Shown here: piece by piece, positions 44,010-63,772 of the stretch
Layout: each line of letters starts with the position of its first letter
How positions within the stretch are numbered: position 1 is the stretch's first letter
Virus record (IMG/VR): IMGVR_UViG_3300027896_000028
Direction: 5' to 3' (one strand)
DNA from: a virus
Taxonomy: Duplodnaviria; Heunggongvirae; Uroviricota; Caudoviricetes
Length of the DNA: 64,000 nucleotides
Notes under the pieces: generated by a model
Databases searched by the model: none
Told to the model about the DNA's origin: nothing
What the model saw: the letters and a program-made list of their open reading frames with translations, nothing else
Position numbers and translations under genes: made by a program

Positions 44010-44573
44010 TTATTTCAGATAAGTGGCAAGTGTTTTTAGCGTTTCACTAAAGGAAACTGAAGACACTTTACAAATACCACCTAGCTTGCGTTCCACCATG
44101 CCGTATAGCCATTTACAGAGATTTTCCGAAGTTGGTACAAATTGCACCAATACTAACCCACCCGCCACTTCAATATGATGGGGCGCCGTTGATGGTGTTG
44201 GCGCGATACAATACTCTACGTGATCATTTACAACAACCGCTTGAACGGCATTGAGATCTAGTGCTGATACCTTATCGAGATTTGTTCGCGTGGAATTGAC
44301 AAAATCAATCGCCCACGGGTCTTCGAGATCTAAAATGGTTTTATGGTCCAGCTGATCATCTATAAACTTCTTAAACCAATTCAAATTAACATAATCAAGA
44401 AGCATGCCTTGCGGGTTAACCATTTCCCCTTCTAACTCCACTGTGATGATAGAGTTGTGGCCATGGCACCTCTTACATTTGCAAATAGAATTGTTTGAGA
44501 GTTCATCAGAAAGCTCTTGTTTCCAGACACGATGGGTGTAGCAGAGTTCGAATTGTTTTGAGATTTTATACAT
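44010..44573 (-). CDS. 6-carboxytetrahydropterin synthase (QueD/PTPS)-like protein
   Basis: 187 aa with a CxxxHGH motif (CKRCHGHNSIITVELEG). Confidence 0.6.
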   Translation of the reverse strand: MYKISKQFELCYTHRVWKQELSDELSNNSICKCKRCHGHNSIITVELEGEMVNPQGMLLDYVNLNWFKKFIDDQLDHKTILDLEDPWAIDFVNSTRTNLDKVSALDLNAVQAVVVNDHVEYCIAPTPSTAPHHIEVAGGLVLVQFVPTSENLCKWLYGMVERKLGGICKVSSVSFSETLKTLATYLK

Positions 44574-44585
44574 ATCATTATTATA

Positions 44586-45287
44586 CTATATTTTTTTCTT
44601 AAATCCACAAGAAGGTGTTGAAGTTCCGTAGATTTCTAAATACGATTTCCCTATTTTAGAGTGATTAGGACAATAATAATGTCCAGGTGTTTTAACCATT
44701 TTATTACAACCGCATAAACAAGCTCGAGGTTTTTTGCATTCTACACAAAAACGACCTTTGATATCTGCTGACATAAATTCATTCTTACAGTTCTCACATA
44801 TATGTTTAAATTTTTTATCTTTAAGCTTATACGGCCCTTTCTTTTGCCCTGTTCGACTTAGAACCATCTTTAATCTACTCTCTGCAGAGTGAACTTTGCC
44901 TTTATTGCTTTGAGATATCTTTCGTCTAGTCTCATCAGATATAGTGCGTATTGAATTATTTTGTGATACCATTTTACTATGTTGTATTTTTAATTTTTCG
45001 TATACAACTGATGTAACTTTATAATCTCTTAATACTCTACTATTTTCTGTATTCAGTTGATTACACATGGCCCATAGGGCAAATTTAAGTTTGTTGTTAT
45101 CAGGGTATATCCTTGTCAGTAATTGATGGCATATAAAATGCTCTCTTGCTGTTAAAGACACCTTGTTTGTTTTGCTATTATTGCCGCTCAGGCATTTTGG
45201 TATAATGTGATGTTTTTCGGTGTAACCTTGTAGTACTCGTTGTTTAGCCCTTTCAATGATGTCGTCGTAAATCTTCTTATATTTCAT
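44586..45287 (-). CDS. HNH homing endonuclease
   Basis: 233 aa. HNH core EKHHIIPKC...REH, NUMOD3-like repeats (ETRRKISQSNKGK.HS) and a C-terminal Cys cluster. Confidence 0.7.
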   Translation of the reverse strand: MKYKKIYDDIIERAKQRVLQGYTEKHHIIPKCLSGNNSKTNKVSLTAREHFICHQLLTRIYPDNNKLKFALWAMCNQLNTENSRVLRDYKVTSVVYEKLKIQHSKMVSQNNSIRTISDETRRKISQSNKGKVHSAESRLKMVLSRTGQKKGPYKLKDKKFKHICENCKNEFMSADIKGRFCVECKKPRACLCGCNKMVKTPGHYYCPNHSKIGKSYLEIYGTSTPSCGFKKKI

Positions 45288-49750: not shown

Positions 49751-50167
49751 TTATTGTAATTTCCAATATCCGTAAACTCGTCTCCATCCCTTTGTTGTGT
49801 GAATTTTGTCATCATTCATCACACCATAAATGATTGCAACGACATGCTCTCTTAAGCTACAAATGATCTTACCTCTGGGCACCTTTCCATCTTCTAGTAT
49901 GAATGAGGGGGCTGTATACCAAACAAACCCCAGCTCTTTCATGTATCGCTTAAACCAAGCAGCTCGTGTCGAGATACCATCCATCACCGTACATGATGGA
50001 GTATGGTGTATAGATTTGCGCTGCTTAGCGTTACCTTCTGCTAGTCTATTGTACACCTGCTGATAAGGTAGGCCTGTAGCGATTGCTATAGAGCGACAAA
50101 CACAGTCTCCACCCTTACTGCGATAACCAGCAGCAGCTCTACCACCATCATTGAATTTAAATTTCAT
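49751..50167 (-). CDS. hypothetical protein
   Basis: 138 aa. Confidence 0.45.
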   Translation of the reverse strand: MKFKFNDGGRAAAGYRSKGGDCVCRSIAIATGLPYQQVYNRLAEGNAKQRKSIHHTPSCTVMDGISTRAAWFKRYMKELGFVWYTAPSFILEDGKVPRGKIICSLREHVVAIIYGVMNDDKIHTTKGWRRVYGYWKLQ

Positions 50168-50742
50168 TATACAACAGGTACAACCTTTAAAATAGCGTGG
50201 TGGTGTTTGTGCATAGGCTTTGGATTAAAAGCCTTCAACTTCTTCAGCTTAGGCCTCTTCCAACCCATCTCCTCAGGAGTCTTGCTACCCTTCTTGTTAT
50301 TACGCTTCTTATGCAACAGAGCAATATTGTTAGGGTCCTTCCTGCTACCACCACGGCTAATTGGGTCAAGATGGTCAAGAGATCTATCCTCAGGAGCAAG
50401 AATCTCACCAGTTACATAATCTCTACCACCATCGCGTTCAGAGATAGTCTTTAAGTTCACCTTAGCAGAACGCTTCGGCACTCTGTCATAGTTGACAGCA
50501 ACAATAACAGTTGGCATCCTAATCCTAGATACAGTGGTGTGGAGAGTCTCTTCAGCAGAGAGTGGTTCGAGCTTAATCCAATCTTCCCACTTGACAGGGT
50601 AGTACTCATCGTCATTGCGAAAGTCAAGAGCAGTCGCAGCGTCAATGAACATCTGCTTAATAGCGTCCTCGACAGTTACCTCATTAATGAGCTGCCAGTT
50701 CGAATTAAGTACAAATACTTTGCGTCTTAGAATATCAGACAT
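50167..50742 (-). CDS. HNH endonuclease
   Basis: 191 aa. RDGGRDYVTGE...LDHLDPISRGG...NIALLHKKRN follows the HNH His-Asn-His pattern, with a basic tail. Confidence 0.65.
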   Translation of the reverse strand: MSDILRRKVFVLNSNWQLINEVTVEDAIKQMFIDAATALDFRNDDEYYPVKWEDWIKLEPLSAEETLHTTVSRIRMPTVIVAVNYDRVPKRSAKVNLKTISERDGGRDYVTGEILAPEDRSLDHLDPISRGGSRKDPNNIALLHKKRNNKKGSKTPEEMGWKRPKLKKLKAFNPKPMHKHHHAILKVVPVV

Positions 50743-51143: not shown

Positions 51144-51176
51144 AGCCTGTAGATTTCTCTACAGGCTTTTTTATTT
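51144..51176 (+). terminator. rho-independent terminator
   Basis: 10-bp stem AGCCTGTAGA/TCTACAGGCT followed by TTTTTTATTT, immediately after the stop of 50831..51124. Confidence 0.7.
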
Positions 51177-51283
51177 GGTCACCTCGACTAGACTCCCACT
51201 AGCATCTTCAACGTTAGGACCGTTGCGCTCTATTAAATTGAGCTACGAGGTGAAAAAGTGATTTTTAAGACTAAATATTTGAT

Positions 51284-51745
51284 ATGGCAACTATACGTCG
51301 TTCAGAAGAAAAGGTGCTCTCAGAAGCATACACTCAAGTTTTAAACACCGAAGGCTTCTTTGATCGAGTTGCTGCTACCGGAGCGGGTGTTATGCAGACA
51401 GCTAAGAATGTTGGTTCTGGTATTAAAGCTACTGGACAAGCTCTTACTGGTAATCTCGCAGGTGCACAAGCAACTGTTGCTAAAATGTCACCAGCAGACG
51501 ATGCTAAGATGCAATCTATTTTAAAGAATTCAGCTAAAAACTTTCTTACGGACATCTTCAAGCTTAAATTGATACCAGGTGCAGAAAATCTTCAACCACA
51601 GGATGTTGATATTAAGGCATTCATCACTGCTGTTGAACCTTTCCTTCAACAGTTAAAGGCTTCAAAGGCACCGGCTCCAGCCGCACCAGCAACTGGAACA
51701 ACTCCAGCAACTCCGGCCGCACCAGCAACTCCACCGGTAGCTTAA
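51284..51745 (+). CDS. Ala/Pro-rich protein
   Basis: 153 aa with a C-terminal PAAPATGTTPATPAAPATPP low-complexity tail. Confidence 0.5.
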   Translation: MATIRRSEEKVLSEAYTQVLNTEGFFDRVAATGAGVMQTAKNVGSGIKATGQALTGNLAGAQATVAKMSPADDAKMQSILKNSAKNFLTDIFKLKLIPGAENLQPQDVDIKAFITAVEPFLQQLKASKAPAPAAPATGTTPATPAAPATPPVA

Positions 51746-51749
51746 TAAA

Positions 51750-51782
51750 TGGCGGATGAGGAGGGAGTTCCACCCCCGGACG
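51750..51782 (-). other. tRNA 3'-end fragment (T-arm + acceptor 3' strand + CCA; Ser-like)
   Basis: The minus strand reads GGGGG-TGGAACT-CCCTC-CTCATCC-G-CCA. This closely resembles the 3' end of tRNA-Ser at 63778..63871. There is no 5' partner. Confidence 0.35.
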
Positions 51783-51847
51783 TTTTTTAGGCGTCGACTG
51801 TTTAGCAAACAGTTGTGTAAATGTGACATACACGTCTCATCCAAAAA

Positions 51848-51923
51848 TGGTACCCTAGGCCGGTCTTGCACCGGCACTTGACAGATTTTAAGTCTGTTGA
51901 CTCTGCTTTTGGTCTACTAGGGC
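51848..51923 (-). tRNA. tRNA-like gene, anticodon UAA (Leu-type anticodon but class I length; non-canonical D/T loops)
   Basis: 76 nt with an encoded CCA. Acceptor GCCCTAG/CTAGGGT (G1-U72), D-loop AAAAGCAG without GG, anticodon stem ACAGA/TCTGT, loop CUUAAAA, T-arm GCCGG-TGCAAGA-CCGGC, discriminator A. Confidence 0.55.
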
Positions 51924-52012
51924 GTCAAATAAACTCCCCCAGGATTACGCTTTGTTATAGGCCTCAGGGTCACCTGATTATTAGCTTTACAAGAGGCGCT
52001 GGAGGATTAAAA

Positions 52013-52089
52013 TGGTACTCCGGGTAGGACTTGCACCTACAACATTTGAGGTTTGAGCTCAACGACTCTTCTAATTGGTCTACCGGAGC
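52013..52089 (-). tRNA. tRNA-like gene, anticodon CAA (Leu-type anticodon, class I length; non-canonical D/T loops)
   Basis: 77 nt with CCA. Acceptor GCTCCGG/CCGGAGT (G1-U72), anticodon stem TTGAG/CTCAA, loop CUCAAAC, T-arm GTAGG-TGCAAGT-CCTAC, A73. Confidence 0.55.
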
Positions 52090-52090
52090 A

Positions 52091-52600
52091 TTAGTTGCTA
52101 CTAAAATCAGGATCAGTGAAATGAACGTGACCAGTCTTGTAATGTCTACGAGCTATTATCACATTTTCAAGTTCATTGATTGCATTCTTATCCGCTTCAA
52201 CTGTTTTAAATTGCTTGGTCGCTAACGACGTAATCAAGGGTATCGCTTGCTTTTGTACACCCTGTACAAACTCTTGAATTTTATCTAACTCTTCAGGGCT
52301 GAGAGTAGTTGGATCAAGTTTTAAGTGCTCTGATATATCGAGAAGAGCATCACCTAAGAGTCTACTAGTTATATCATCTACAACAATGTGGCTAGTAAAG
52401 AACCCTGCAGCGTCTCTAATCTCACCAGCAGCACAACTAGCGGCTACTTCTTCCTTTTCGTAATACTCACCTTCGATAATATCCTCTATTACTTTAAGAG
52501 TTCTGTCAATCAACATTCGAGGTGTAATATACCGCTGAGCATACTTCATCAGATCTTTACCGTTGTATGCTTCATTTATTAGATGATTGTCCAAGTTCAT
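52091..52600 (-). CDS. hypothetical protein
   Basis: 169 aa, acidic. Confidence 0.5.
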   Translation of the reverse strand: MNLDNHLINEAYNGKDLMKYAQRYITPRMLIDRTLKVIEDIIEGEYYEKEEVAASCAAGEIRDAAGFFTSHIVVDDITSRLLGDALLDISEHLKLDPTTLSPEELDKIQEFVQGVQKQAIPLITSLATKQFKTVEADKNAINELENVIIARRHYKTGHVHFTDPDFSSN

Positions 52601-52619
52601 AATATTATTTAGGCAAAAG

Positions 52620-52675
52620 TGGTCCTCCCAGCGAGACTCACACTCGCAACCTAGCCCTTATCGAGGGGTAGCTCT
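52620..52675 (-). other. tRNA 3' half (class II: anticodon-stem 3' strand, long variable arm, T-arm, acceptor, CCA)
   Basis: The minus strand reads GAGCT-ACCCCTCGATAAGGGCTAGG-GCGAG-TGTGAGT-CTCGC-TGGGAGG-A-CCA. It pairs with the 5' half at 53171..53200 (acceptor CCTCCTG/TGGGAGG and anticodon stem AGCTC/GAGCT). Confidence 0.45.
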
Positions 52676-52688
52676 ATTAAATAATTAT

Positions 52689-53087
52689 ATGAAGACATCT
52701 AATTGTTTAAATTGTAAAGTAACATTTAATTATAATGGCTCTAACTATCATGGTAAGTATTGCTCAAATAAATGCCAAGGAGAGTATAGACAGAAGCAAT
52801 ATCTGATAAATCTCAAATCTGGAGCATTAAACGGTAAGACTATAAATAGACCTAGTGTATATGCTCATTTAGTTCGTGAGAACGGTAATAGATGCGCTAT
52901 ATGCCTTACAGAAGGTATATGGAATGAAAAACCGTTGAGGTTATGGGTAGATCATATAGACGGCAATGCCTCCAATAATACCTGGACTAATTTTAGATTA
53001 ATATGTCCTAACTGTGAATCACAGTTAGATACATGCAGAGCTAAGAATAAAGGTAAGGGCAGAAAAGCCATCGGTATGAAATGGTAG
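52689..53087 (+). CDS. HNH homing endonuclease
   Basis: Track ORF 52587..53087; ATG chosen at MKTSNCLNC. N-terminal Cys4 finger, then NRCAICL...WVDHIDGNASNNTWTNFRLICPNCES (HNH). Its stop overlaps the 3' end of the tRNA at 53082. Confidence 0.7.
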   Translation: MKTSNCLNCKVTFNYNGSNYHGKYCSNKCQGEYRQKQYLINLKSGALNGKTINRPSVYAHLVRENGNRCAICLTEGIWNEKPLRLWVDHIDGNASNNTWTNFRLICPNCESQLDTCRAKNKGKGRKAIGMKW

Positions 53088-53156
53088 TCCTGGCAGGATT
53101 TTCGCCCGCAACCTGAGGGTTATATGCCCACTGCTCTAAAATTGAGCTACAGGACC
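53082..53156 (-). tRNA. tRNA-like gene, anticodon loop CAUAUAA (UAU, Ile-like, if canonical numbering applies)
   Basis: 75 nt with CCA. Acceptor GGTCCTG/CAGGACT (G1-U72), D-arm GCTC-AATTTTA-GAGC (TT in place of GG), T-loop CGAAAAT. A sits at position 33, which is atypical. Confidence 0.45.
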
Positions 53157-53170
53157 GTTAAATTTATAAA

Positions 53171-53200
53171 GAGCTTGCTCTACAATTGAGCTACAGGAGG
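53171..53200 (-). other. tRNA 5' half (acceptor 5' strand, D-arm, anticodon-stem 5' strand)
   Basis: The minus strand reads CCTCCTG-TA-GCTC-AATTGTA-GAGC-A-AGCTC. It is followed directly by an intact tRNA and is complementary to the 3' half at 52620..52675. Confidence 0.4.
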
Positions 53201-53203
53201 AAA

Positions 53204-53279
53204 TGGTAGACACGACAGGTCTTGCACCCGCACTAAGCCGGTCCTAAGCCGACTGCCTCTGCTTTTGGGCTACGTGTCC
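53204..53279 (-). tRNA. tRNA-like gene, anticodon UAG (Leu-type anticodon, class I length)
   Basis: 76 nt with CCA. Acceptor GGACACG/CGTGTCT (G1-U72), D-loop AAAAGCAGA, anticodon stem GTCGG/CCGGC, loop CUUAGGA, T-loop TGCAAGA, A73. Confidence 0.55.
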
Positions 53280-53286
53280 ATTAAAA

Positions 53287-53362
53287 TGGCAGCCTGTGAA
53301 GGACTTGCACCCTCAATTACCGTTCCGAAGACGGTAGTGATATCTAATTTCACCAACAGGCC
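53287..53362 (-). tRNA. tRNA-Arg (anticodon UCG), non-canonical D/T loops
   Basis: 76 nt with CCA. Acceptor GGCCTGT/ACAGGCT (G1-U72), D-arm GTGA-AATTAGATA-TCAC, anticodon stem ACCGT/ACGGT, loop CUUCGGA, T-arm GAGGG-TGCAAGT-CCTTC, G73. Confidence 0.6.
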
Positions 53363-53441
53363 ATGGAGCTGAATGTCGGTAATGCTCCGACTTATCTAGT
53401 TTACGAAACTAGTGCATCACTTTATATGCTTATCCAGCAAA

Positions 53442-54077
53442 TCAACTCTTTATATATTTAGAAGGAGGAAACTCTTCGTGGTAGTGATTTACACCACTTG
53501 TAAATAAACTCTTGTATGTATCATTCTTACCTAAACTAAGCAACCACTTTTCAGATGAATAATAATCAGTTGTATCACAGGTTGGCAACTGTTTGATATA
53601 CGAACTCTTTGCCCACCAAAAATTACCTGAGTAGTGTAATCCAAAACCAGGTGCATCCTGTTTATTAACACCAACTGTATTCATCTCCTCCAAAGCTTTA
53701 AAACACTCTTTCCACTCTTCTATAAGAAAGTACTCCATATAAGCTATCCAGCTATTAACAGGTACACTATCACATTTAGTAACACCTTTCGAGTGGATAT
53801 AAAGTATATTAGCTTCTGATTCTAAGTTTCGGCAAAACTCTCTAATGTAGTTAGTTGTTAACGATTCATTAGAAAACATAACCGGTGACAAACTGATAAC
53901 CTCTATCTTCGGATGCACTTTAAACTTCGGTGCATTTGACATATCACCGTTCAAGGAAACATATATCTTATCTACTGCGTCAATGAGACCACTCGATACG
54001 ATTTTATTATACGTCTTCAGGAAGCGTTCGTGGTAATCGTTTAAAGTTGATGAATGATAAAATATGTAACTTTGCAT
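53442..54077 (-). CDS. hypothetical protein
   Basis: 211 aa. Confidence 0.5.
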   Translation of the reverse strand: MQSYIFYHSSTLNDYHERFLKTYNKIVSSGLIDAVDKIYVSLNGDMSNAPKFKVHPKIEVISLSPVMFSNESLTTNYIREFCRNLESEANILYIHSKGVTKCDSVPVNSWIAYMEYFLIEEWKECFKALEEMNTVGVNKQDAPGFGLHYSGNFWWAKSSYIKQLPTCDTTDYYSSEKWLLSLGKNDTYKSLFTSGVNHYHEEFPPSKYIKS

Positions 54078-54131
54078 ATGGTTATTTTATAACATCTCTA
54101 TTTGTTATCAACTTTAATAAATGGCGGGAAA

Positions 54132-54392
54132 TTAATCAGGTTCAATGAATGATAAATCGTTTTGAAACCAAGATTCACCTTCATGATGTTTACAGCACTT
54201 ATTTGAGCAATAACCCCACCAATCTCCTTCATATTGAGGATGATCTTTGGTATCCCAATTACAGCAAACATGGATGATAGGCCAACCACAATCTTTGCAA
54301 TGTATACCTTCTGAAATTTCTATCGTCTCTGTGCTAGTTTTATATTTCAACTTATGCATAAATGGTGGGAATGATAGGATTTGCACATACAC
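54132..54392 (-). CDS. Cys/His-rich small protein
   Basis: 86 aa with CKDCGW...HVCCNW...CSNKCCKHHEG. Confidence 0.4.
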   Translation of the reverse strand: MYVQILSFPPFMHKLKYKTSTETIEISEGIHCKDCGWPIIHVCCNWDTKDHPQYEGDWWGYCSNKCCKHHEGESWFQNDLSFIEPD

Positions 54393-54446
54393 TGTTTACC
54401 TCCTCAAGGTAACGTCTCCTGCTAGTTGGACTACATTCCCGTAAAT

Positions 54447-54523
54447 TGGTGCGCTCGGAGGTAGTTGCAACCTCACCATATCCGGTTAAGAGCCGGGTGC
54501 CGGTCTACTGTAGCTTCAGGCGC
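54447..54523 (-). tRNA. tRNA-like element (anticodon loop CUCUUAA, CUU Lys-like); poor D-arm
   Basis: Ends in ACCA. T-arm GAGGT-TGCAACT-ACCTC, anticodon stem CCGG/CCGG, acceptor with one mismatch. The D-arm cannot be folded canonically. Confidence 0.3.
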
Positions 54524-54529
54524 ATTAAA

Positions 54530-54952
54530 TTATAACGACGATATACTCTGCGATAAGGCTGATTGTTTAAATGCTTCCATCTCTTCTTTGCTTGGTCGCA
54601 CTTCGACTCTTTCAGTCTTAAATTCTAGGTTAATAGACATATCAACATCAGAACCATCCAATGCTTTGATAGTCTTACCTTTAACAGGTCTCTCGTAAAC
54701 ACATTGCATATAGAAGACTTTGCCCATCTTCTTTGGTTTGATATCATCTAGTTGTTTACCTATCTCGAGCTGCTCTGTAAACCACTTATCACCGTCACGC
54801 ATTTCTTTCGGGCGCCCATTAGAAAAGTGAGCATTGAAGTATTCGAGGAGTTCTTCCTTTGTACCGACTAATATTTCAGCTTTTTGTATCATGGAATCAA
54901 TATAACAGATAAAGATATAAATGCAACTGAAGTTTAGAAATGGTCGCAGCAC
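54530..54952 (-). CDS. hypothetical protein
   Basis: 140 aa. GTG start, N-terminal hydrophobic segment. Confidence 0.45.
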   Translation of the reverse strand: MLRPFLNFSCIYIFICYIDSMIQKAEILVGTKEELLEYFNAHFSNGRPKEMRDGDKWFTEQLEIGKQLDDIKPKKMGKVFYMQCVYERPVKGKTIKALDGSDVDMSINLEFKTERVEVRPSKEEMEAFKQSALSQSISSL

Positions 54953-55015
54953 CCGGTGCTACCCCGGACTGAACTGGCTTATGAAACCTGCTCGATCGTT
55001 GGATCTACTGCGAAA

Positions 55016-55090
55016 TGGAGCCACCAGAAGGATATGCACCTTCCTGTCTGACTTACCAAGTCAGTTCATCGCTGTCTATGAGTTGGCGGC
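55016..55090 (-). tRNA. tRNA-Thr (anticodon GGU), non-canonical D/T loops
   Basis: 75 nt with CCA. Acceptor GCCGCCA/TGGTGGC, D-arm TCAT-AGACAGCG-ATGA, anticodon stem CTGAC/GTCAG, loop UUGGUAA, T-arm GAAGG-TGCATAT-CCTTC, U73. Confidence 0.6.
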
Positions 55091-55097
55091 GTTGTGA

Positions 55098-55499
55098 TTA
55101 ACAATTAATCAAATCAATATTCTGATCACCTGCAATGTTTACCAACCCGTTATCACCTGCGATGTTAAACAACTGACATGAATCACCAGGTGTTGGAGTA
55201 GGTGTTGGGGTAGGTGTGATCTCTGTCGGTGTCGGAGTCGGCAAAATCTCTGTCGGTGTTGGTGTGATCTCTGTCGGTGTCGGAGTCGGCAAAATCTCTG
55301 TCGGTGTTGGTGTGGTACCTGGTGTGGGTGGAACGTACAAGGTATGGCCTACTGTAGTAGCAGATGTGTTAGATATCTTAGGTTGTATACCTCTTGCTCT
55401 TCCACCAGCTCGCACTGATGCCGCTGCAGCTATTCTCGCCTCTGAACGCGTAGCTCTTGCTATTCTAATACTATCAAATTGTGATGGTGACTGTGCCAT
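55098..55499 (-). CDS. Pro/Thr-repeat protein
   Basis: 133 aa with TPTPTEILPTPTPTEITP tandem repeats. Encoded by a perfect 2 x 48-bp DNA tandem duplication. Confidence 0.5.
   Translation of the reverse strand: MAQSPSQFDSIRIARATRSEARIAAAASVRAGGRARGIQPKISNTSATTVGHTLYVPPTPGTTPTPTEILPTPTPTEITPTPTEILPTPTPTEITPTPTPTPTPGDSCQLFNIAGDNGLVNIAGDQNIDLINC
55213..55308. repeat. perfect 48-bp tandem duplication (2 copies)
   Basis: ggtgtgatctctgtcggtgtcggagtcggcaaaatctctgtcggtgtt occurs twice, back to back. Confidence 0.8.
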
Positions 55500-55518
55500 A
55501 CATATATTTATCTAAAAC

Positions 55519-55592
55519 TGGAGCTCAGTATTGGATTTGATCCGTCGTTTCAGTCTTACCAAGACCGTGTTCTGCTATTGAACTAACAAGGC
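55519..55592 (-). other. chimeric tRNA-like element (Thr-GGU-like 5' two-thirds + unrelated T-arm/acceptor 3' end with CCA)
   Basis: The 5' part is GCCTTGT-TA-GTTC-AATAGCA-GAAC-A-CGGTC-UUGGUAA-GACTG. The 3' part GGATCAAATCCAATACTGAGC-T-CCA does not pair with the 5' acceptor strand. Confidence 0.35.
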
Positions 55593-55595
55593 AAA

Positions 55596-55624
55596 TGGAG
55601 CTCAATATTGGATTTGCACCAATG
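55596..55624 (-). other. tRNA 3'-end fragment (T-arm ATTGG-TGCAAAT-CCAAT + acceptor 3' strand ATTGAGC + U + CCA)
   Basis: A direct repeat of the 3' end of the chimera. There is no 5' partner adjacent. Confidence 0.35.
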
Positions 55625-55655
55625 AATAATCGTTTTGAGTTCATTAAATAATTAT

Positions 55656-56435
55656 ATGACACAAAAAACAGGTATTTATACTAATTGTAAGCAATGTAAT
55701 AAGTCTATATATGTTACAAGAGGTGCAGCGAAGAAACGTCAAAATCATTTTTGTTCGCAGACATGCTCAGCAAAATACAATAACGCGCATAGAGCACCTA
55801 TGACAAGCAAGCAGAAGCAACAGAGATCAGATACCCTACGCAAATTTCATGGATTGCCTACACGAATATTGACACAACCAATTATGCCACTCGAACATCG
55901 ACTTAGTATATCTCGTGCTCACAGGGAAGGTAAGATTATGCAAAAGGAATATACTTGTAAGGTGTGCAATCAACTATTCATTTCACATAGGCAAGGCAAG
56001 GCATATTTTCCTACTGTTTGTTCAGATGAATGTCGCGGGCAACAATTAATTAAAAACGCGCACGGATGTAGATACATCTATAAAAACACCCATATGCAAT
56101 CTAGCTGGGAAGTTAGTATTGCAAAATTTCTTGATGAACAAGGTATAGAGTGGGTACGCCCTAAGTGTATACCTTACAAATATCTAGATGGAAAGATGAG
56201 AAATTATTTTGCTGATTTTTTTATACCATCTCTTAATTTATATGTAGATCCTAAAAATCCGATAATTGCCCGCATTCAAAAGGATAAGCTTCTTATTTTA
56301 GAAAAACAGATTGATCTTATCTATGGTACGGTGGATTTTCTCAAACAAGAAATACTTAAACGGGTTAAGAAGATGGAGCTAGGTGTCGGTGCTGCCCCGA
56401 CTAACTTCCGCTTTGCAGGCGGTGCCGTTTGCTGA
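55656..56435 (+). CDS. putative homing endonuclease (N-terminal Zn fingers + C-terminal Vsr/DUF559-like PD-(D/E)xK domain)
   Basis: Track ORF 55635..56435 (TTG start); ATG at MTQKTGIY chosen. It shares the upstream leader TTAAATAATTATATG with the HNH gene at 52689. The motif YFADFFIP...LYVDPKNP resembles the Vsr-like nuclease core. The C-terminal 20 codons run antisense through a tRNA. Confidence 0.55.
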   Translation: MTQKTGIYTNCKQCNKSIYVTRGAAKKRQNHFCSQTCSAKYNNAHRAPMTSKQKQQRSDTLRKFHGLPTRILTQPIMPLEHRLSISRAHREGKIMQKEYTCKVCNQLFISHRQGKAYFPTVCSDECRGQQLIKNAHGCRYIYKNTHMQSSWEVSIAKFLDEQGIEWVRPKCIPYKYLDGKMRNYFADFFIPSLNLYVDPKNPIIARIQKDKLLILEKQIDLIYGTVDFLKQEILKRVKKMELGVGAAPTNFRFAGGAVC

Positions 56436-56449
56436 TTCGGTAACCTAGC
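56374..56449 (-). tRNA. tRNA-Cys (anticodon GCA), non-canonical T-loop
   Basis: 76 nt with CCA. Acceptor GCTAGGT/ACCTAGC (perfect), U8 A9, anticodon stem CCGC/GCGG, loop CUGCAAA, T-arm GTCGG-GGCAGCA-CCGAC, U73. Confidence 0.5.
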
Positions 56450-56550
56450 TTAAGACGAGTCCCTTAGCTTCTTGGGTAACTGAGCATTAAATGGGGTGAC
56501 CGGTGGGTAATTACTTCGATTTTATCACCCCATCAGATATAAGTATTAAT

Positions 56551-57282
56551 ATGAAGACAACAGTAAGCTGTCCGATGTGTAAAACGGCTTTCAAACAACT
56601 AACTAATAGCCATTTTAAGCGGTGTCATAATACTACAATACACGATATAAAAATACAATTCCCTAATATTCAATTAAAATCGGATGCAACATATTCATTA
56701 GAATGCAAACAAATGGTATTAAAACGCCATTTAGCTGTTAAATTTAAAAATACAGAAAAGAAACAACGAGTTATTGAATATAATTCTAATCCTAAATGCT
56801 GTCAACAATGCTCAAAACCTATTTCATATACGAATAAGCGTTATGCTGATTTTTGTTCACATAAATGTGCAGCTGTTTTTAATAAATCACATCTCAGTTT
56901 TTCAGTTAAACGTAGTAAGGCTGAGATGTATATGGAACGGTTACTAACGAAATCTTTTCCTCTTATACCCATTGAAACAAACAACAGAAGTGTGCTCTCA
57001 ACTAAATTTGAAATTGATATATTATTACCAACGATTAAACTAGCTATTGAAATAAATGGGCCGACTCATTTTATACCAGTTCATGGTGATGAGATTCTTA
57101 AAAAAATACAGAATAGAGATTTACAGAAGGTATTAGAACTCCAGAAATTAAATTATACTTTTTTTGTTATTGATATAAGTCAGTTTACAAATTTTGAAAA
57201 GACTGTGAAATATCTTGATATTATATTCATTAAACAAATTAAGCCTTTTATTGAGCAGTATCAAAAAGAAATGGTCAGGTAG
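56551..57282 (+). CDS. putative homing endonuclease (Zn finger + Vsr/DUF559-like PD-(D/E)xK domain), paralog of 55656..56435
   Basis: Track ORF 56503..57282 (GTG start); the ATG at MKTTVSCPMCK has the same ATGAAGACA context as the HNH gene at 52689. The motif FEIDILLP...LAIEINGPTHF is a D...(E/Q)xK-like core. Its stop overlaps the tRNA at 57272. Confidence 0.55.
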   Translation: MKTTVSCPMCKTAFKQLTNSHFKRCHNTTIHDIKIQFPNIQLKSDATYSLECKQMVLKRHLAVKFKNTEKKQRVIEYNSNPKCCQQCSKPISYTNKRYADFCSHKCAAVFNKSHLSFSVKRSKAEMYMERLLTKSFPLIPIETNNRSVLSTKFEIDILLPTIKLAIEINGPTHFIPVHGDEILKKIQNRDLQKVLELQKLNYTFFVIDISQFTNFEKTVKYLDIIFIKQIKPFIEQYQKEMVR

Positions 57283-57348
57283 GTGGGATTTGCACCCACA
57301 CAGTTCCCTTCACAGAGGAAGATGCTAACTATTACATCACGTACCTGA
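57272..57348 (-). tRNA. tRNA-like gene with enlarged or irregular anticodon loop (anticodon unresolved)
   Basis: 77 nt ending in CCA. Acceptor TCAGGTA/TACCTGA, D-arm GATG...CATC, T-arm GTGGG-TGCAAAT-CCCAC. The anticodon region TTCC-UCUGUGAAG-GGAA folds only with an 8-9-nt loop. Confidence 0.4.
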
Positions 57349-57354
57349 ATAATC

Positions 57355-57423
57355 TGGAGCCAAGCCGGACATTGCAGTCCGCATCCTCGTTTACAAAACG
57401 AGCGTAGGTAGCTTACGCAAGGC
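57355..57423 (-). tRNA. tRNA-Thr-like (anticodon UGU), 5' region shortened (possible pseudo-tRNA)
   Basis: 69 nt with CCA. Perfect anticodon stem CTCGT/ACGAG with loop UUUGUAA, T-arm CGGAC-TGCAATG-GTCCG. The acceptor has two U-U mismatches and a 3-bp D-stem. Confidence 0.4.
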
Positions 57424-57427
57424 AAAA

Positions 57428-57502
57428 TGGAGCCCCATGAAAGATTTGCGCTTTCCTTTCCGGATTACAAAGCCGGTGCATCGCTGTCTATGCTTATAGG
57501 GC
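57428..57502 (-). tRNA. tRNA-Thr (anticodon UGU), non-canonical D/T loops
   Basis: 75 nt with CCA. Acceptor GCCCTAT/ATGGGGC, D-arm GCAT-AGACAGCG-ATGC, anticodon stem CCGG(C)/(U)CCGG, loop UUUGUAA, T-arm GAAAG-CGCAAAT-CTTTC, U73. Confidence 0.55.
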
Positions 57503-57539
57503 GTAAAATATGCAGATGTTTTGCTAACACTTGCATAAA

Positions 57540-57613
57540 TGGTAGGGGATAGAGGTAACGCTCCTCTGTCCTGTCGGTGTAAGCGACTCGCTCTGCTTTT
57601 GAGCTAACCCCCC
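57540..57613 (-). tRNA. tRNA-Val (anticodon UAC), non-canonical D/T loops
   Basis: 74 nt with CCA. Acceptor GGGGGGT/ATCCCCT (G1-U72), D-arm GCTC-AAAAGCA-GAGC, anticodon loop CUUACAC, T-arm AGAGG-AGCGTTA-CCTCT, A73. Confidence 0.55.
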
Positions 57614-59487: not shown

Positions 59488-60870
59488 TTATTTGGTACCT
59501 TTATCTAAAGATGCTTGAGCACGTGTCCAATCCTTTGACATAAACGATTTAAACGGCTCAACGTTCTTATTATCAAGTATAGTCTTAAATAGCGTAGCAG
59601 TTATCATATTATCCACTCTATTAAGTTTACTAAAGAAAACGTTCATCCATTCTTCATCAAGTTCGTGTAGGATACCGCACATCTCAGCGGCAACTTTTAT
59701 CTGTGTTTTCTTATCAGCTCCCATCAGTCTCTTTTGAAGCTCTGATGTGCAGCGTGAAAGAACACCATGGAGTTGATCAGTGCTAACACCTTCCGTCTCC
59801 TTGGTGTTCTTTTTCAAACCGATATGCTTCTTAGGGTTAGATACTAACTTATCCCAATCGAAATGACGCATATAACGCAAGTGCGCCATAAATCTACGAG
59901 ACCATGCTGGGCCACATGACTCACCAGCAGCTATTTCAATCTCTGTCATCGGATCGTAACTCAACTTACCATTACTCGCTTTGAAATCTTTATAGATTTC
60001 CTCCATATCTTCACTCAATGTAACAAACGAGCGAGGACATGCAAACTGATTATCGAAAGAAGGTTTCTCGTAGAAATTCTTTTCTGGATCAATTTCAACA
60101 AACTCACAGATGTATTCACTAATATTATTCATTCGTGCCCACTTTAGCCAAGTTGGAGCATCTGCAACCATTATACCAGCTTTAAAACGACTGGTTAAAG
60201 CGATCGGAAGTGGTTCATTGAAATCTGCACCTAAGTTACCTGCAGCAACAATACCCCAATCATCATTCATCTTCAAGTTACCAATCTTGCGATCTAATAC
60301 TAACTGAAATAGCGCCTTTTGTACAGCTTGGTGACCTTGATTTATTTCATCAAGGAAAAGCATACCAGATGAAGAAGGTATACCCATGATATATGCATAA
60401 AGCTGTGGCTTCATCTCGAGATATTCCTTCCTGCTTCTGATATCAATAATACCCGTAATGTCAGAAGGTTCTAACATCGCTGTGCGAATATCCCAAAAGA
60501 AGAAGTAATCTTTATAGAGGTTGTTATCGATAATATGACGCTGTTCATCAACACTTAATAATGCCCAGTCAACTACTTTACGCTTACCACCAAGTTTCTG
60601 ATCGACTATTCTTGCTAAATCGTTAGCTGATTCTTTAATCACAGCAGTTTTACCAAGACCAGGATCACCATAAACAAGCACAGATCTATGAGTCTTAAAA
60701 CCTCTGACAATAGAACGAACGGTTTGTTCAATTGAACGCTCAACTAGGTTCTTTTCCGCATGAGAGTGTGTAGGTGTATTAGTATCTGGAAACTCAGAGA
60801 TATCGATAGCATCTTCCTCTGCATATTCACAGAGTTTTCTAAAAGTATCGATTGTTTTGAAGGCTCTCAT
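59488..60870 (-). CDS. AAA+ ATPase (MoxR/AAA_5-like)
   Basis: 460 aa. Walker A VLVYGDPGLGKTAV, Walker B MLFLDEINQG and a sensor AAGN. Confidence 0.65.
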   Translation of the reverse strand: MRAFKTIDTFRKLCEYAEEDAIDISEFPDTNTPTHSHAEKNLVERSIEQTVRSIVRGFKTHRSVLVYGDPGLGKTAVIKESANDLARIVDQKLGGKRKVVDWALLSVDEQRHIIDNNLYKDYFFFWDIRTAMLEPSDITGIIDIRSRKEYLEMKPQLYAYIMGIPSSSGMLFLDEINQGHQAVQKALFQLVLDRKIGNLKMNDDWGIVAAGNLGADFNEPLPIALTSRFKAGIMVADAPTWLKWARMNNISEYICEFVEIDPEKNFYEKPSFDNQFACPRSFVTLSEDMEEIYKDFKASNGKLSYDPMTEIEIAAGESCGPAWSRRFMAHLRYMRHFDWDKLVSNPKKHIGLKKNTKETEGVSTDQLHGVLSRCTSELQKRLMGADKKTQIKVAAEMCGILHELDEEWMNVFFSKLNRVDNMITATLFKTILDNKNVEPFKSFMSKDWTRAQASLDKGTK

Positions 60871-62277: not shown

Positions 62278-62353
62278 TGGCGCTTGTATCTGAAGTTGCA
62301 TCAGAAATTTAACCTTCGCAGGGTTATGTGATATCTATTTTCACCATACAAGC
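62278..62353 (-). tRNA. tRNA-Arg (anticodon GCG), non-canonical D/T loops
   Basis: 76 nt with CCA. Perfect acceptor GCTTGTA/TACAAGC, D-arm GTGA-AAATAGATA-TCAC, anticodon stem TAACC/GGTTA, loop CUGCGAA, T-arm TCTGA-TGCAACT-TCAGA, G73. Confidence 0.6.
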
Positions 62354-62387
62354 AAACCGGCGCTCTATCTAACTGAGCTACTCGAGC
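62354..62387 (-). other. tRNA 5' half fused upstream of tRNA-Arg(GCG)
   Basis: The minus strand reads GCTCGAG-TA-GCTC-AGTTAGATA-GAGC-G-CCGGT-UU and then runs directly into the next tRNA. There is no 3' partner adjacent. Confidence 0.35.
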
Positions 62388-62388
62388 A

Positions 62389-62580
62389 TTAAATTTTTTC
62401 GAAGTTATCAAGAGTATCCCATTCAAGCAACCTCTTGTGTGCACTATACTCTATTACAAGACCTCTAGATTCACGTTTAACAACACGGACCGTGTAACCA
62501 AAGCCTTTATGTTGAAGGACGTCACCAACACCCCACTCTTTAGGGGACTGTGTTTGTTCATAAAAGACCTTGAAAGTCAT
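62389..62580 (-). CDS. hypothetical protein
   Basis: 63 aa. Confidence 0.4.
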   Translation of the reverse strand: MTFKVFYEQTQSPKEWGVGDVLQHKGFGYTVRVVKRESRGLVIEYSAHKRLLEWDTLDNFEKI

Positions 62581-62599
62581 ATTATTATTTAGTCTTAAA

Positions 62600-62674
62600 T
62601 GGTAGCGCGTAGGGGTTACGCTCCCCTGCCTTAGCCTTGAAAGGGCTCTATCCTAACTATTAGACGAACACGCC
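62600..62674 (-). tRNA. tRNA-Glu (anticodon UUC), non-canonical D/T loops
   Basis: 75 nt with CCA. Acceptor GGCGTGT/ACGCGCT (G1-U72), anticodon stem AGCC/GGCT, loop CUUUCAA, T-arm AGGGG-AGCGTAA-CCCCT, A73. Confidence 0.55.
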
Positions 62675-62675
62675 A

Positions 62676-62999
62676 TTAAATTTGTCGAGCTTGGCAAGCT
62701 GGGCACCTGCGAAGCAGCTCAGTGTAGTTAGCTTTAACATCGTACCAACCTACATGATTAAAATTTTCTAAAACACTGCAATCTAGGGGTGTCTTATGCT
62801 TCATATTGCGATTCAACATCTCTTCTGCAATCTCATCGTGTCGAGTTTGCAATGTCTTTGTATCGACTAAGCCAGTAGAAGCATACTTACCAAGTGCAAC
62901 ACCTTTTTTGATAGAACCAATAAACATATGATGTTCTACGTGCTCACCAAGCAGGTGTTTATTGCACATTAATTTAGGATTTACATGCCATTGTCTCAT
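62676..62999 (-). CDS. pyrimidine-dimer DNA glycosylase (T4 endonuclease V / DenV-like)
   Basis: 107 aa. LMCNKHLLGEHVEHHMFIGSIKKGV aligns with the DenV motif [24 protein letters not shown]. Confidence 0.55.
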   Translation of the reverse strand: MRQWHVNPKLMCNKHLLGEHVEHHMFIGSIKKGVALGKYASTGLVDTKTLQTRHDEIAEEMLNRNMKHKTPLDCSVLENFNHVGWYDVKANYTELLRRCPACQARQI

Positions 63000-63040
63000 A
63001 GATTTAATGTATAAAATCTATGAAGTAAAATCAATGCATT

Positions 63041-63499
63041 TTACCCGTTTTGATTCTTTAGGTTGGAGATGTAGTCACCGTAAGAGTTATAATCAGTAAA
63101 GATTCTTGTCCAAATAAAGAGGTTGTTCTTTCCTCCGTTAACAGTCTCTTTAATACCAATTACATGGAAAGGTGGTTGACGTTTTTGTACTTCTACACCG
63201 TAAATGAGGGTAGTAGGTTTACTAGGTCCCTCTGTCTTAAATCTGATAGATGCTTTCAATTCGAAAATTGCATCTTGTCCTCGGCTAGCTTTCCACGCTC
63301 GAAAATATCGACGCATAATAGCTCGCTCGTTAGGCTTCAACTTCTTCTTATCTGATAAGAACTGTTTAGTTACCTTTTCACGATCACCGGCACCTCGGTC
63401 ATATCGAAGAGCTACCTTGGATGGTCTATGAGCCTCTGCTAGAATAAACGACTTAAAGCTTTTCATTTTTAACCTCTGGTTTAGCAGCTGCATCAGCAA
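63041..63499 (-). CDS. hypothetical basic protein
   Basis: 152 aa. Confidence 0.45.
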   Translation of the reverse strand: MLMQLLNQRLKMKSFKSFILAEAHRPSKVALRYDRGAGDREKVTKQFLSDKKKLKPNERAIMRRYFRAWKASRGQDAIFELKASIRFKTEGPSKPTTLIYGVEVQKRQPPFHVIGIKETVNGGKNNLFIWTRIFTDYNSYGDYISNLKNQNG

Positions 63500-63650
63500 A
63501 AGCGTCTTGGGTATCTACAGCTGTATCAACACCTAGAGCATGTTTAAAATCCTCTTCAGAATTAAACGTCAACACCGGGATATCTTGGACATCATAAGTG
63601 CTTTCAAGCATCAGTTGACCATCTGCGGCTTTTTTCAATTTCTTGCTCAT
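63453..63650 (-). CDS. hypothetical protein
   Basis: 65 aa, overlapping the previous ORF by 47 nt. Confidence 0.35.
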   Translation of the reverse strand: MSKKLKKAADGQLMLESTYDVQDIPVLTFNSEEDFKHALGVDTAVDTQDAFADAAAKPEVKNEKL

Positions 63651-63697
63651 ATTATTATTTATATGATATTGACAAATTAACCAATAGTCAATAAAAA

Positions 63698-63772
63698 TGG
63701 TCCACTAGGTTGGTATCGCACCAACGTCCACGGGGTTTCAATCCGTTGCTAATCTATCTCAGCTACTAGTGG
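63698..63772 (-). tRNA. tRNA-Phe (anticodon GAA), non-canonical T-loop
   Basis: 75 nt with CCA. Perfect acceptor CCACTAG/CTAGTGG, U8 A9, anticodon loop UUGAAAC, T-arm GTTGG-TGCGATA-CCAAC, A73. Confidence 0.65.

Follow-up and report, generated by a model that had tools for sequence, protein, structure and literature searches.

Three probable homing endonuclease genes among the tRNA genes of an uncultivated freshwater phage

The target of the endonuclease SegB in tRNA genes is the sequence GGTTCRANTCC, and the enzyme brings about co-conversion of the tRNA region (PMC2330249). It cuts within tRNA genes, amplifies a segment made of tRNA plus segB, and co-localises with tRNAs (PMC13096335). The F-Tfl endonuclease ORFs of phage T5 are located in the tRNA cluster (PMC2330249), and tRNA clusters of mycobacteriophages contain HNH genes (PMC6409571). 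A related situation is found in an uncultivated freshwater phage analysed over a stretch of 64,000 nt (the window), in which the plus strand carries three nuclease ORFs inside a minus-strand tRNA array. The three ORFs are quite likely free-standing homing endonucleases of three nuclease families, equipped with FCS zinc fingers and specialised on phage tRNA arrays. The phenomenon is known from T4 SegB and T5 F-Tfl and occurs here with other enzyme families.

The first ORF is a free-standing HNH endonuclease gene (52689..53087, plus strand) whose product of 132 aa begins with an FCS-type zinc finger. The second (55656..56435, plus strand) encodes 259 aa comprising two FCS zinc fingers and a PD-(D/E)xK nuclease domain, and the third (56551..57282, plus strand) encodes 243 aa comprising zinc fingers and a Vsr/EDxHD-like nuclease domain. 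Their placement among opposite-strand tRNAs, pointed out in a preliminary description of this DNA, was borne out by the ORF list, ARAGORN and Rfam, and their status as homing-endonuclease-type genes embedded in the array is supported. Each gene faces an orphan tRNA 3’ fragment head-on and, at its other end, meets an intact tRNA tail-to-tail; the stop codons lie inside tRNA genes, by 6 nt for the HNH gene, 62 nt for the second and 11 nt for the third. The tie to tRNA genes is supported at the DNA level by overlaps, orphan fragments and split tRNAs.

The identification of the HNH gene, already proposed, holds: its protein matches PHROG HNH families at 7e-19, 5.5e-15 and 2.3e-14 and carries the motif CxxC...DH..N..N..CxxC in the form CAIC...VDHIDGN...NN...CPNC, with Pfam scores (PF01844 / PF13392) remaining below cut-off (HNH_3 21.1 vs 24.8, HNH 16.1 vs 21.4). 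The second protein shows the restriction-endonuclease-like fold and D...(D/E)xK motif of PD-(D/E)XK enzymes, with E152, D187, D198 and K200 invariant across diverged homologs; in Pfam it gives only sub-threshold matches (Rhodanese_C, DUF7487). The third protein has a Vsr-like fold with the conserved E, D, H and D of EDxHD nucleases, its residues E125, D156, N169, H173 and D190 being invariant across diverged homologs. It matches no Pfam family at E<=0.1, and its likeness to Vsr is at the fold and profile level only. The label “Vsr/DUF559-like”, previously given to both genes, stands as a fold assignment for the third gene, without a Pfam match, and is replaced by PD-(D/E)xK for the second. The two were also called paralogous, which holds only weakly, as they have just an FCS-type zinc finger in common and belong to different families: 72 aa align in BLASTP, with 31% identity, and the hhalign alignment is confined to the FCS zinc finger. 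The N-terminus of the third protein carries FCS/MYM-type zinc fingers. Nuclease folds and catalytic residues are intact in the three proteins. None of them matches a GIY-YIG domain in Pfam or PHROGs, and their folds differ from GIY-YIG.

The stop codon of the HNH gene overlaps by 6 nt the CCA end of an intact tRNA named “B” (53082..53156, minus strand), as the preliminary description had stated. This tRNA scores 48.4 bits with Rfam and 64.9 bits with R1, a covariance model built from other tRNAs of this phage lineage only, and is missed by ARAGORN; its anticodon loop CAUAUAA reads UAU, with A33. The tRNAs of this lineage are systematically non-canonical, with the canonical TTC at T-loop positions 54-56 in only 3 of 37 (mostly G at 55) and D-loop GG in only 4 of 37. 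On either side of “B” and the HNH gene lie the two halves of another tRNA, “A”. Its orphan 5’ fragment (53158..53201, minus strand; repeat family D18) consists of the acceptor strand CCTCCTG and the D arm; aligned with the 5’ part of “B”, it shows 96% identity. Its orphan 3’ fragment (52620..52688, minus strand; R1 20.6 bits, E 8e-4) spans the D or anticodon region to TGGGAGG-A-CCA and abuts the HNH leader. In an acceptor matrix, the acceptor strand of this 5’ fragment pairs 7/7 solely with the 3’ fragment at 52620; the breakpoint of “A” can be read in two ways.

The second gene runs into a divergent tRNA-Cys (56374..56449, minus strand), which folds as a cloverleaf with an anticodon loop CUGCAAA (GCA) and reaches 39 bits with R1 (E 3e-8). 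ARAGORN and Rfam miss it, even at E<=10, and it is accepted as a divergent tRNA gene from its cloverleaf and the lineage covariance model. The ORF had been described as antisense through the whole tRNA-Cys; the overlap is real but covers 62 of the 76 nt, and the last 19 aa of the protein correspond to read-through into the antisense tRNA. Next to it stands an orphan 5’ fragment, “E5” (56450..56485, minus strand), made of GCTCAGT, the D arm and the start of the anticodon arm, whose acceptor pairs 7/7 with two 3’ ends, one at 55596 and one at 55519. The former belongs to an orphan 3’ fragment, “D3” (55596..55650, minus strand; R1 17.8 bits, E 0.004), which extends from the anticodon region to ATTGAGC-T-CCA, directly beside the leader of endonuclease gene two; like the 3’ fragment of “A”, it scores as tRNA-like with R1. 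The latter belongs to tRNA “C” (55519..55592, minus strand; anticodon GGU; Rfam 33.2 bits, R1 23 bits), which is probably chimeric, with only 5/7 of its own acceptor paired and its last 22 nt duplicating the 3’ end of “D3”. The acceptor of an element “H” is likewise 5/7 paired, and this element scores only 3.4 bits as a tRNA (R1). Two resident tRNA genes are thus split around a unit of tRNA plus endonuclease, their halves (A5’/A3’ and E5’/D3’) pairing 7/7, with breakpoints that differ, in the D loop or the anticodon loop and not at T54.

The third gene ends 11 nt inside the 3’ end of a tRNA-His (GUG; 57272..57347, minus strand) detected by both ARAGORN and Rfam, again as first described. Ahead of this gene, a 39-nt hairpin (56493..56531, minus strand) had been reported, and its 7-bp arms GGGGTGA/TCACCCC and its span over the GTG at 56503 are confirmed; as a structure it is unexceptional, its energy matching that of shuffled sequence (minus strand, z = +0.26; plus strand, z = -0.17). 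Nor is the GTG start required: translation from the ATG at 56551 already includes the conserved CxxC. The element reads, in order, as a 5’ acceptor-like strand, a TAAAAT linker, the T-stem 3’ strand CCCAC, an acceptor 3’ strand, C and CCA, and its CCCAC is identical to the T-stem 3’ strand of tRNA-His. Judged by this layout, it looks like an orphan mini-tRNA remnant of the kind flanking Vsr-like nuclease genes in other phages: the same layout recurs in four loci of the Vsr-like family (L168, L178, L180, L170), with a counterpart at the same place in the related phage L150.

The two first genes share an identical 15-nt leader, TTAAATAATTATATG (52677..52691 and 55644-55658, plus strand; repeat family D10). 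The preliminary description had noted this identity, which in fact extends to 17 nt, and had taken it as the mark of a mobile cassette with its own expression signal. The latter idea is not supported: the motif is genome-wide and precedes many unrelated genes, the outcome that the preliminary description itself had named as counting against the leader. TAAATAWT is found 4-5 nt ahead of the ATG of about 17 unrelated genes in the window. TAAATA[AT] occurs 35 times there, 18 of them (17 distinct gene starts) within 12 nt upstream of an ATG whose ORF is 60 aa or longer, with both strands represented. The leader of an AAA-ATPase gene (59488-60870) differs at 1 of 18 nt, and a variant, TAAGTATTAATATG (56540-56553, plus strand), stands ahead of the third endonuclease gene. 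Beyond the 17 nt, the upstream regions of the HNH and second genes are unrelated tRNA fragments. The TAAATAWT leader is a genome-wide gene-start motif that is not endonuclease-specific.

Across hundreds of unrelated viral contigs, the three families are supported as specialists of phage tRNA arrays, rarely seen outside them. Of 66 IMG/VR loci of the HNH family, 58 have a tRNA no more than 150 nt away and 65 have one in the ±3-kb flanks. For the PD-(D/E)xK family, this holds within 300 nt in 69/79 loci and within 2 kb in 74/79, and for the Vsr-like family in 21/28 and 25/28, respectively, against 0/33 and 4/33 for a control gene. All contexts retrieved by exact-protein look-up (L150, L151, L153-L157) show tRNA arrays on the minus strand and the endonuclease gene opposite, on the plus strand.

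Traces of insertion also surround Vsr-like relatives. In L168, L180 and L181, 19-20 of 20 nt copy the last 20 nt of the adjacent tRNA (null maximum 13-14/20); the copies begin at TTCGA (T54), 45-65 nt from the ATG, and affect three tRNA species (Cys, Met and CUA). The intact tRNA is kept, and the duplicate 3’ end lies across the insert from it. At least 13 of 25 Vsr-like loci contain an orphan fragment that spans T-loop to 3’ end, and in L151 an orphan (...TGCGAATCCTGCCTGCAGTACCA) resembles the 3’ end of the tRNA-Arg across the gene. A duplicated tRNA piece was found in just 7/49 HNH and 2/52 PD-(D/E)xK IMG/VR loci. Disrupted or duplicated targets were found as split tRNAs, 3’-end duplications and orphan T-loop fragments.

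Presence/absence polymorphism, suggested earlier as a check, gives a mixed picture among the relatives found, all of them distant. The L150 neighbourhood lacks the second gene; the zinc-finger HNH occupies other sites in L150, and the L151 neighbourhood does not contain it. Synteny of the third gene with tRNA-His extends to L150 (60% aa identity), where a tRNA (5718-5792) overlaps the stop of the homolog, and the tandem of second and third genes recurs in L151, these arrangements persisting despite 35-60% aa identity. Such persistence fits long vertical retention, perhaps domestication, and equally ongoing homing. Neither megablast against phages nor two metagenome pattern scans gave an insert-free close relative; the neighbouring gene is an ORFan, and the sole other contigs found are the same phage.

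Under the homing explanation, the enzymes would read sequence that is conserved among tRNA genes. In the case of the Vsr-like enzymes, the duplications starting at T54 point to the T-loop as a candidate target, in parallel with the GIY-YIG enzyme SegB, for which this was shown experimentally. Insert-free arrays or paralogous tRNA genes would be cut, and recombination-dependent break repair would copy the gene together with the neighbouring tRNA, imprecise or ectopic repair leaving orphan and chimeric tRNA pieces. Expression would rely on the phage’s ordinary TAAATAWT signal, antisense to the tRNA precursor transcript. Points against this explanation are the differing breakpoints of the split tRNAs, away from T54, the few HNH and PD-(D/E)xK loci with a duplicated tRNA piece, the failure of the searches to yield a close insert-free relative, and the persistence of gene three and the tandem in L150 and L151. 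An unlikely extension makes the tail-to-tail pair of tRNA and endonuclease the mobile unit, which would enter further tRNA genes through ectopic homing guided by conserved tRNA sequence. Three or more unrelated nuclease families would then move tRNA genes about, duplicating and recombining them, the orphan mini-tRNAs (an acceptor helix with the T-loop-to-CCA part) would be functional RNAs of the array transcript rather than dead scars, and the T-loop change from TTC to TGC in this lineage would be an escape from T-loop-reading nucleases. If true, nuclease families would continually shape phage tRNA repertoires.

The nucleases might also be domesticated and no longer selfish, kept by the phage because their breaks in the array drive tRNA duplication, amplification and reshuffling, with a benefit such as escape from tRNA-targeting host defences, or because they attack the arrays of competing phages. 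This is possible, though doubtful. SegB acts exactly so in T6 (PMC13096335), and the conserved position of the third gene, tRNA-His and hairpin in L150, the recurring tandem, the invariant catalytic residues and the duplicated and chimeric tRNA pieces of this array all agree with it. However, domestication overlaps with homing and does not exclude it, the exact 20-nt target duplications at Cys, Met and CUA tRNAs show recent insertions at new sites, and the endonuclease gene sets differ among the three related phages.

Two further readings fare worse. Enzymes directed at RNA, degrading host tRNAs or processing the array transcript, would make the proximity to tRNAs functional, and the non-canonical phage tRNAs could resist a nuclease that cuts host tRNAs and then replace those. 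This is very improbable: the structures matched best belong to enzymes that act on DNA (Vsr, I-Bth0305I, VRR-NUC, TnsA, Hjc), the N-terminal zinc-finger modules also occur on phage HNH homing endonucleases (phrog_15471), the flanking duplications and split genes are at the DNA level, and antisense overlap with tRNAs would be a strange arrangement for a gene whose product processes them. It is hardly credible that split halves form one functional tRNA gene with an intron carrying the endonuclease ORF. ARAGORN -i does join 52620..53200 as a tRNA-Tyr across 504 nt, but this prediction required 70% stringency, the intervening DNA holds a complete tRNA gene and an opposite-strand ORF, and the group I and group II intron models of Rfam gave no match across the region, even at E<=10.

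Homing endonucleases specialised on tRNA arrays, the preferred reading, bring the locus closest to SegB of T4 and T6. Both have an endonuclease gene that stands free among the tRNA genes of a phage, duplicated tRNA-containing segments and homologs statistically co-localised with tRNAs; reading the T-psi-C of tRNA genes and carrying neighbouring tRNAs would be a further likeness (PMC2330249, PMC13096335). SegB is a GIY-YIG enzyme, whereas HNH, PD-(D/E)xK and Vsr-like folds with FCS zinc fingers are found here, in genes known from sequence alone that are antisense to tRNAs and overlap their 3’ ends. T5 F-TflI/II/IV and the mycobacteriophage HNH genes, compared by location only, are similarly endonuclease ORFs interspersed in a phage tRNA cluster; the HNH protein described here has an N-terminal FCS zinc finger. 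A group I intron-encoded endonuclease in a tRNA gene was considered as a candidate and rejected, the ORFs being antisense and free of any Rfam intron family at E<=10. I-Bth0305I (PDB 3r3p), the prototype of the EDxHD (Vsr-like) homing endonucleases, resides in a recA group I intron and uses NUMOD/HTH DNA-binding modules; the third gene differs in being free-standing, in a tRNA array and equipped with zinc fingers. Finally, some integrative elements insert into the 3’ ends of tRNA genes, bringing a replacement 3’ end. The Vsr-like loci L168, L180 and L181 resemble them in the preserved intact tRNA and the duplicate 3’ end beyond the insert, but differ in that their inserts, of about 0.8 kb and without integrase, carry an endonuclease gene only, and the duplication runs from T54.

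Three plus-strand genes for zinc-finger nucleases lie within the minus-strand tRNA array of this phage, namely an HNH gene (52689-53087, gene one), a PD-(D/E)xK gene (55656-56435, gene two) and a Vsr/EDxHD-like gene (56551-57282, gene three). The three ORFs are real, as the preliminary description had them, and their products display nuclease folds and catalytic residues. For gene one, HNH families of PHROG match at 7e-19, the CxxC/DH/N/N/CxxC pattern is present, and scores with Pfam HNH models fall just under the cut-off. The C-terminal domain of gene two is confidently predicted (pLDDT about 90) to adopt a restriction-endonuclease-like fold, with structural matches to VRR-NUC (7.4), I-Bth0305I (7.2), TnsA (6.8) and Vsr (6.6) and an invariant E...D...DxK motif. 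CxxC...(F/Y)CSxxC modules occur in all three nucleases; those of genes two and three match FCS/MYM zinc fingers in profiles, and the copy in gene one matches the same zinc-finger region of a PHROG as gene two (phrog_15471). Genes two and three had been called paralogous, but they are not close paralogs because hhalign aligns the zinc finger only, which argues against true paralogy, and orthologs of both are present in the related contig L151. A fourth HNH-type gene (50167-50742, 191 aa) lies a little way beyond the array and, like the tRNAs, is on the minus strand, with a similarly placed homolog in L151 (3602-4180, 34% identity).

All three nuclease families are specialised on tRNA arrays. 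Among 66 IMG/VR loci with homologs of the HNH gene (33-64% identity), 65 have a tRNA in the ±3-kb flanks and 58 within 150 nt, and in 48 a tRNA begins at most 60 nt past the stop codon. A tRNA is found within 2 kb in 74/79 loci of the PD-(D/E)xK family and within 300 nt in 69/79, the corresponding counts for the Vsr-like family being 25/28 and 21/28, mostly on the opposite strand. The PD-(D/E)xK family by itself numbers at least 302 loci. For an unrelated control, the relatives of a 211-aa gene, these counts are 4/33 and 0/33. The tandem of the window recurs in L151, where a gene-two homolog is followed by a tRNA and then a gene-three homolog. In L150, the other of the two nearest relatives, the order is a tRNA like element 57355-57423, tRNA-His, a gene-three homolog and the hairpin, and tRNA-His again overlaps the stop codon. 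CUA-anticodon tRNAs (amber suppressors, labelled 'Pyl' by ARAGORN) stand directly beside Vsr-like genes in two IMG/VR contigs, L181 (2467-2539) and L172 (about 57 nt from the ATG), which may be relevant to stop-codon-recoding phages.

The window corresponds to JGI contig Ga0031655_10000127, identical across the 20.5 kb retrieved, and the phage is present in samples JGI 3300003852, ERZ27247850 and SRR5272259. The same phage occurs in two other assemblies, identical in aligned stretches save for three mismatches and a 48-nt repeat-copy difference in one contig, L082. A minus-strand ORF (55098-55499) contains a Pro/Thr-rich tandem repeat (TPTPTEI...) and encodes 133 aa in the window versus 117 aa in L082, a difference of 48 nt. 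Megablast against 50,697 GenBank phage records gave no match to the 51-58 kb region. Single-protein IMG/VR scans returned no matches for neighbouring-gene proteins of 221, 169 and 460 aa, the 169-aa protein being an ORFan, nor for gene two as a query, and only relatives at ≤41% identity for the 211-aa gene. These searches yielded no close relative in which presence or absence of the endonuclease genes could be compared. The closest relatives are L150 and L151, freshwater contigs of about 220 kb each, in which the endonuclease genes are also antisense in minus-strand arrays. L150, the carrier of the closest gene-three homolog, also encodes a GOLLD RNA with an embedded tRNA (2183-2656, minus strand, 193.7 bits); no GOLLD match was found within the window.

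The minus strand carries almost all genes from about 24 kb onward, and also the tRNA genes, which form a dispersed array at 51176-57613 and occur again at 62-64 kb. This array is under-called by standard tools: the count for the window was 10 tRNAs with ARAGORN and 13-14 with Rfam, and a lineage covariance model trained on 37 tRNAs of the phage and its relatives recovered, from 50.8 to 58 kb, 14 tRNAs of full length at E ≤1e-6, plus weaker partial matches. The lineage tRNAs (window 51176-57613 and 62278-63772; relatives L150, L151, L153 and L157) are systematically non-canonical. Their T-loop starts with TGC in 19/37 and AGC in 5/37, and with the universal TTC in just 3/37, the D-loop GG is present in only 4/37, and CCA is encoded by all. 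In unrelated phage arrays, TTC is found in 498/537 tRNAs. The non-canonical T-loop could be an escape from T-loop-reading nucleases. All four Leu-anticodon tRNAs of the window (51848-51923, 52013-52089, 53204-53279 and 54363-54440; anticodons UAA, CAA, UAG and GAG) are 76-78 nt long and, unlike bacterial tRNA-Leu, have no long variable arm. The anticodon loops CAUAUAA (53082-53156) and UCGAUAA (52620-52688) have A or C at position 33 instead of the near-universal U. Changes in phage tRNA anticodon loops have been linked to the evasion of host anticodon nucleases.

The reported overlaps between ORFs and tRNA genes hold, amounting to 6 nt with the tRNA at 53082-53156, 11 nt with tRNA-His (57272-57347) and 62 nt with a divergent tRNA (56374-56449). 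The latter was missed by both ARAGORN and Rfam, yet it folds into a cloverleaf, and the lineage model, whose training set did not include it, gives it 39 bits (E 3e-8). The 19-aa tail of gene two read through this tRNA is missing in homologs and predicted to be disordered, and is therefore an accidental read-through.

The DNA of tRNA genes is split and duplicated around the endonuclease genes. Each endonuclease start codon faces a CCA-ending orphan tRNA 3' fragment (52620-52688, 55596-55650 and the hairpin region at 56493-56531), and the lineage model scores the first two as tRNA-like (E 8e-4 and 0.004). Past the stop codons of genes one and two, on the far side of the intact tRNA, there is in each case an orphan 5' fragment (53158-53201 and 56450-56485, respectively). 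When all acceptor halves were compared with one another, the only 7/7 partner of the 5' fragment at 53201 was the 3' fragment at 52620, and the 5' fragment at 56485 had two such partners, the 3' ends at 55596 and 55519. Pair 2:71 is C:G in the first split tRNA versus G:C in its intact paralog at 53082-53156, both sides having changed, and at pairs 1:72, 6:67 and 7:66 at least one side differs with pairing kept. Two resident tRNA genes are thus split around a 'tRNA + endonuclease' unit. The alternative, that an intron interrupts the split tRNA, is unlikely, and a group I or II intron is rejected as no ribozyme model matches. In the first split tRNA, the breakpoint is ambiguous: it falls in the D arm if the tRNA is of class I, or in the anticodon loop if the variable arm is long. 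The tRNA at 55519-55592 also looks chimeric because its acceptor stem is mismatched and its 3' end is duplicated from a neighbour. Element 57355-57423 reaches only 5/7 acceptor pairs and 3.4 bits as a tRNA, and its counterpart in L150 is fully paired.

For the Vsr-like family, a concrete insertion point marked by a 20-nt duplication can be proposed at tRNA position 53/54. In three unrelated IMG/VR loci, an intact tRNA stands 50-57 nt past the stop codon, namely tRNA-Cys (L168), tRNA-Met (L180) and a CUA-anticodon tRNA (L181), and a copy (19-20/20 nt) of the last 20 nt of this adjoining tRNA, starting at TTCGA, i.e., T54, is found 45-65 nt beyond the ATG. At least 13 of 25 distinct loci of the family carry, at this same place, an orphan piece that extends from the T-loop through to the tRNA 3' end. 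In L168 and L180 and in two more loci, L170 and L178, the 5' acceptor strand is also duplicated in front of it, with a TAAAAGT-type linker next in most, and the two parts form a small helix closing about 25 nt. The 50-57 nt spacer between tRNA and stop codon forms a hairpin in L168 (2475-2530), L180 (2415-2469) and L181 (2418-2466), whose stems covary (ACAGTC/GACTGT; GATAACC/GGTTATC) around the conserved loop AAGTTAAyyTACyTkCACGTrGT. In seven loci (L168, L180, L178, L184, L176, L159 and L172), a T4-late-like motif of the TATAAATA type also separates the orphan fragment from the ATG of the endonuclease gene; it is on the tRNA strand and directed at the orphan fragment and downstream tRNAs, and transcription of the array beyond this point may start from a promoter brought in by the insert.

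The hairpin highlighted in the preliminary description does have 7-bp arms (GGGGTGA/TCACCCC, 56493-56531), but it folds no better than shuffled sequences on either strand (z-score about 0), which rules out an unusually stable structure or terminator. Neither terminator-like sites (20 vs 18.4 expected) nor sigma-70-like sites (3 vs 3.1 expected) are enriched in the region. The hairpin reads GGGGTGA, then TAAAATCGAAGTAATTA, then CCCAC, then CGGTCAC-C-CCA. Because this layout is that of the four family loci with the small helix and its CCCAC repeats exactly the 3' strand of the T-stem in the adjoining tRNA-His, the hairpin can be read, with moderate confidence, as an orphan mini-tRNA, either a scar or a functional element. 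A compensatory change between the window and L150 is not firm evidence, because the register of the helix with respect to CCA is not the same in the two.

The leader upstream of genes one and two was proposed to be a signal proper to a mobile cassette. The identity is real, over 17 nt, but the leader is a general gene-start motif of the phage, its similarity being common to many unrelated genes, and genome-wide use of TAAATAWT at gene starts rules out a cassette-specific signal. TAAATA[AT] occurs 35 times in the window on both strands, and 18 of these (17 distinct starts) lie at most 12 nt upstream of an ATG opening an ORF of at least 60 aa, usually with a 4-5 nt spacing. The full pattern with up to three mismatches occurs 14 times versus 2.5 expected, the leader of an AAA-ATPase gene (59488-60870) differs from those of the endonucleases at one position, and the homologs in L150 and L151 are preceded by a similar TAAATAWT motif. 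Across the window, gene starts fall into two classes, with TAAATAWT (for example 38302-39516, 39538-40347, 44586-45287, 59488-60870) or TATAAT (for example 7765-8880, 29836-30366, 44010-44573) ending about 4-8 nt before the ATG. TAAATAWT resembles the T4 late promoter TATAAATA, and no obvious Shine-Dalgarno sequence is seen at gene starts of either class in the window. This pattern suggests that there are two classes of promoter and that the mRNAs have no leader or a very short one. The leader, hairpin and paralogy claims are ordinary or weak; the association with tRNAs across whole families and the signature of insertion at the T-loop are the parts worth pursuing.

That endonuclease genes occur in phage tRNA clusters is already established for SegB of T4/T6, F-Tfl of T5 and mycobacteriophage HNH enzymes (PMC2330249, PMC6409571, PMC13096335), and the window genes are further members of this known kind. 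The sequence that SegB recognises within tRNA genes is GGTTCRANTCC; the enzyme causes co-conversion of the tRNA region and, through recombination, amplification of a segment that holds a tRNA and segB (PMC2330249; PMC13096335). By analogy, the three enzymes of the window would cut a conserved tRNA-gene sequence, break repair would copy their genes along with the adjoining tRNA, and the fragments and chimeras would result where repair between tRNA gene paralogs is ectopic or imprecise. The conserved positions in L150 and L151 would also fit a domesticated role of the endonucleases, which is inseparable here from homing, and a role directed at RNA is unlikely.

Selfish-nuclease remodelling of tRNA arrays looks like a general feature of phage genomes, and the zinc-finger HNH, PD-(D/E)xK and Vsr-like families could yield compact enzymes with a predictable target. 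A literature search of incomplete coverage returned no description of Vsr/EDxHD-like or PD-(D/E)xK zinc-finger endonucleases as tRNA-array specialists, nor of the T54 duplication. SegB has recently been shown to drive both the amplification of tRNA genes and the evasion of host defences that cleave tRNAs, and the present data suggest that the tRNA-array niche is common to at least three further families (zinc-finger HNH, PD-(D/E)xK and Vsr/EDxHD-like).
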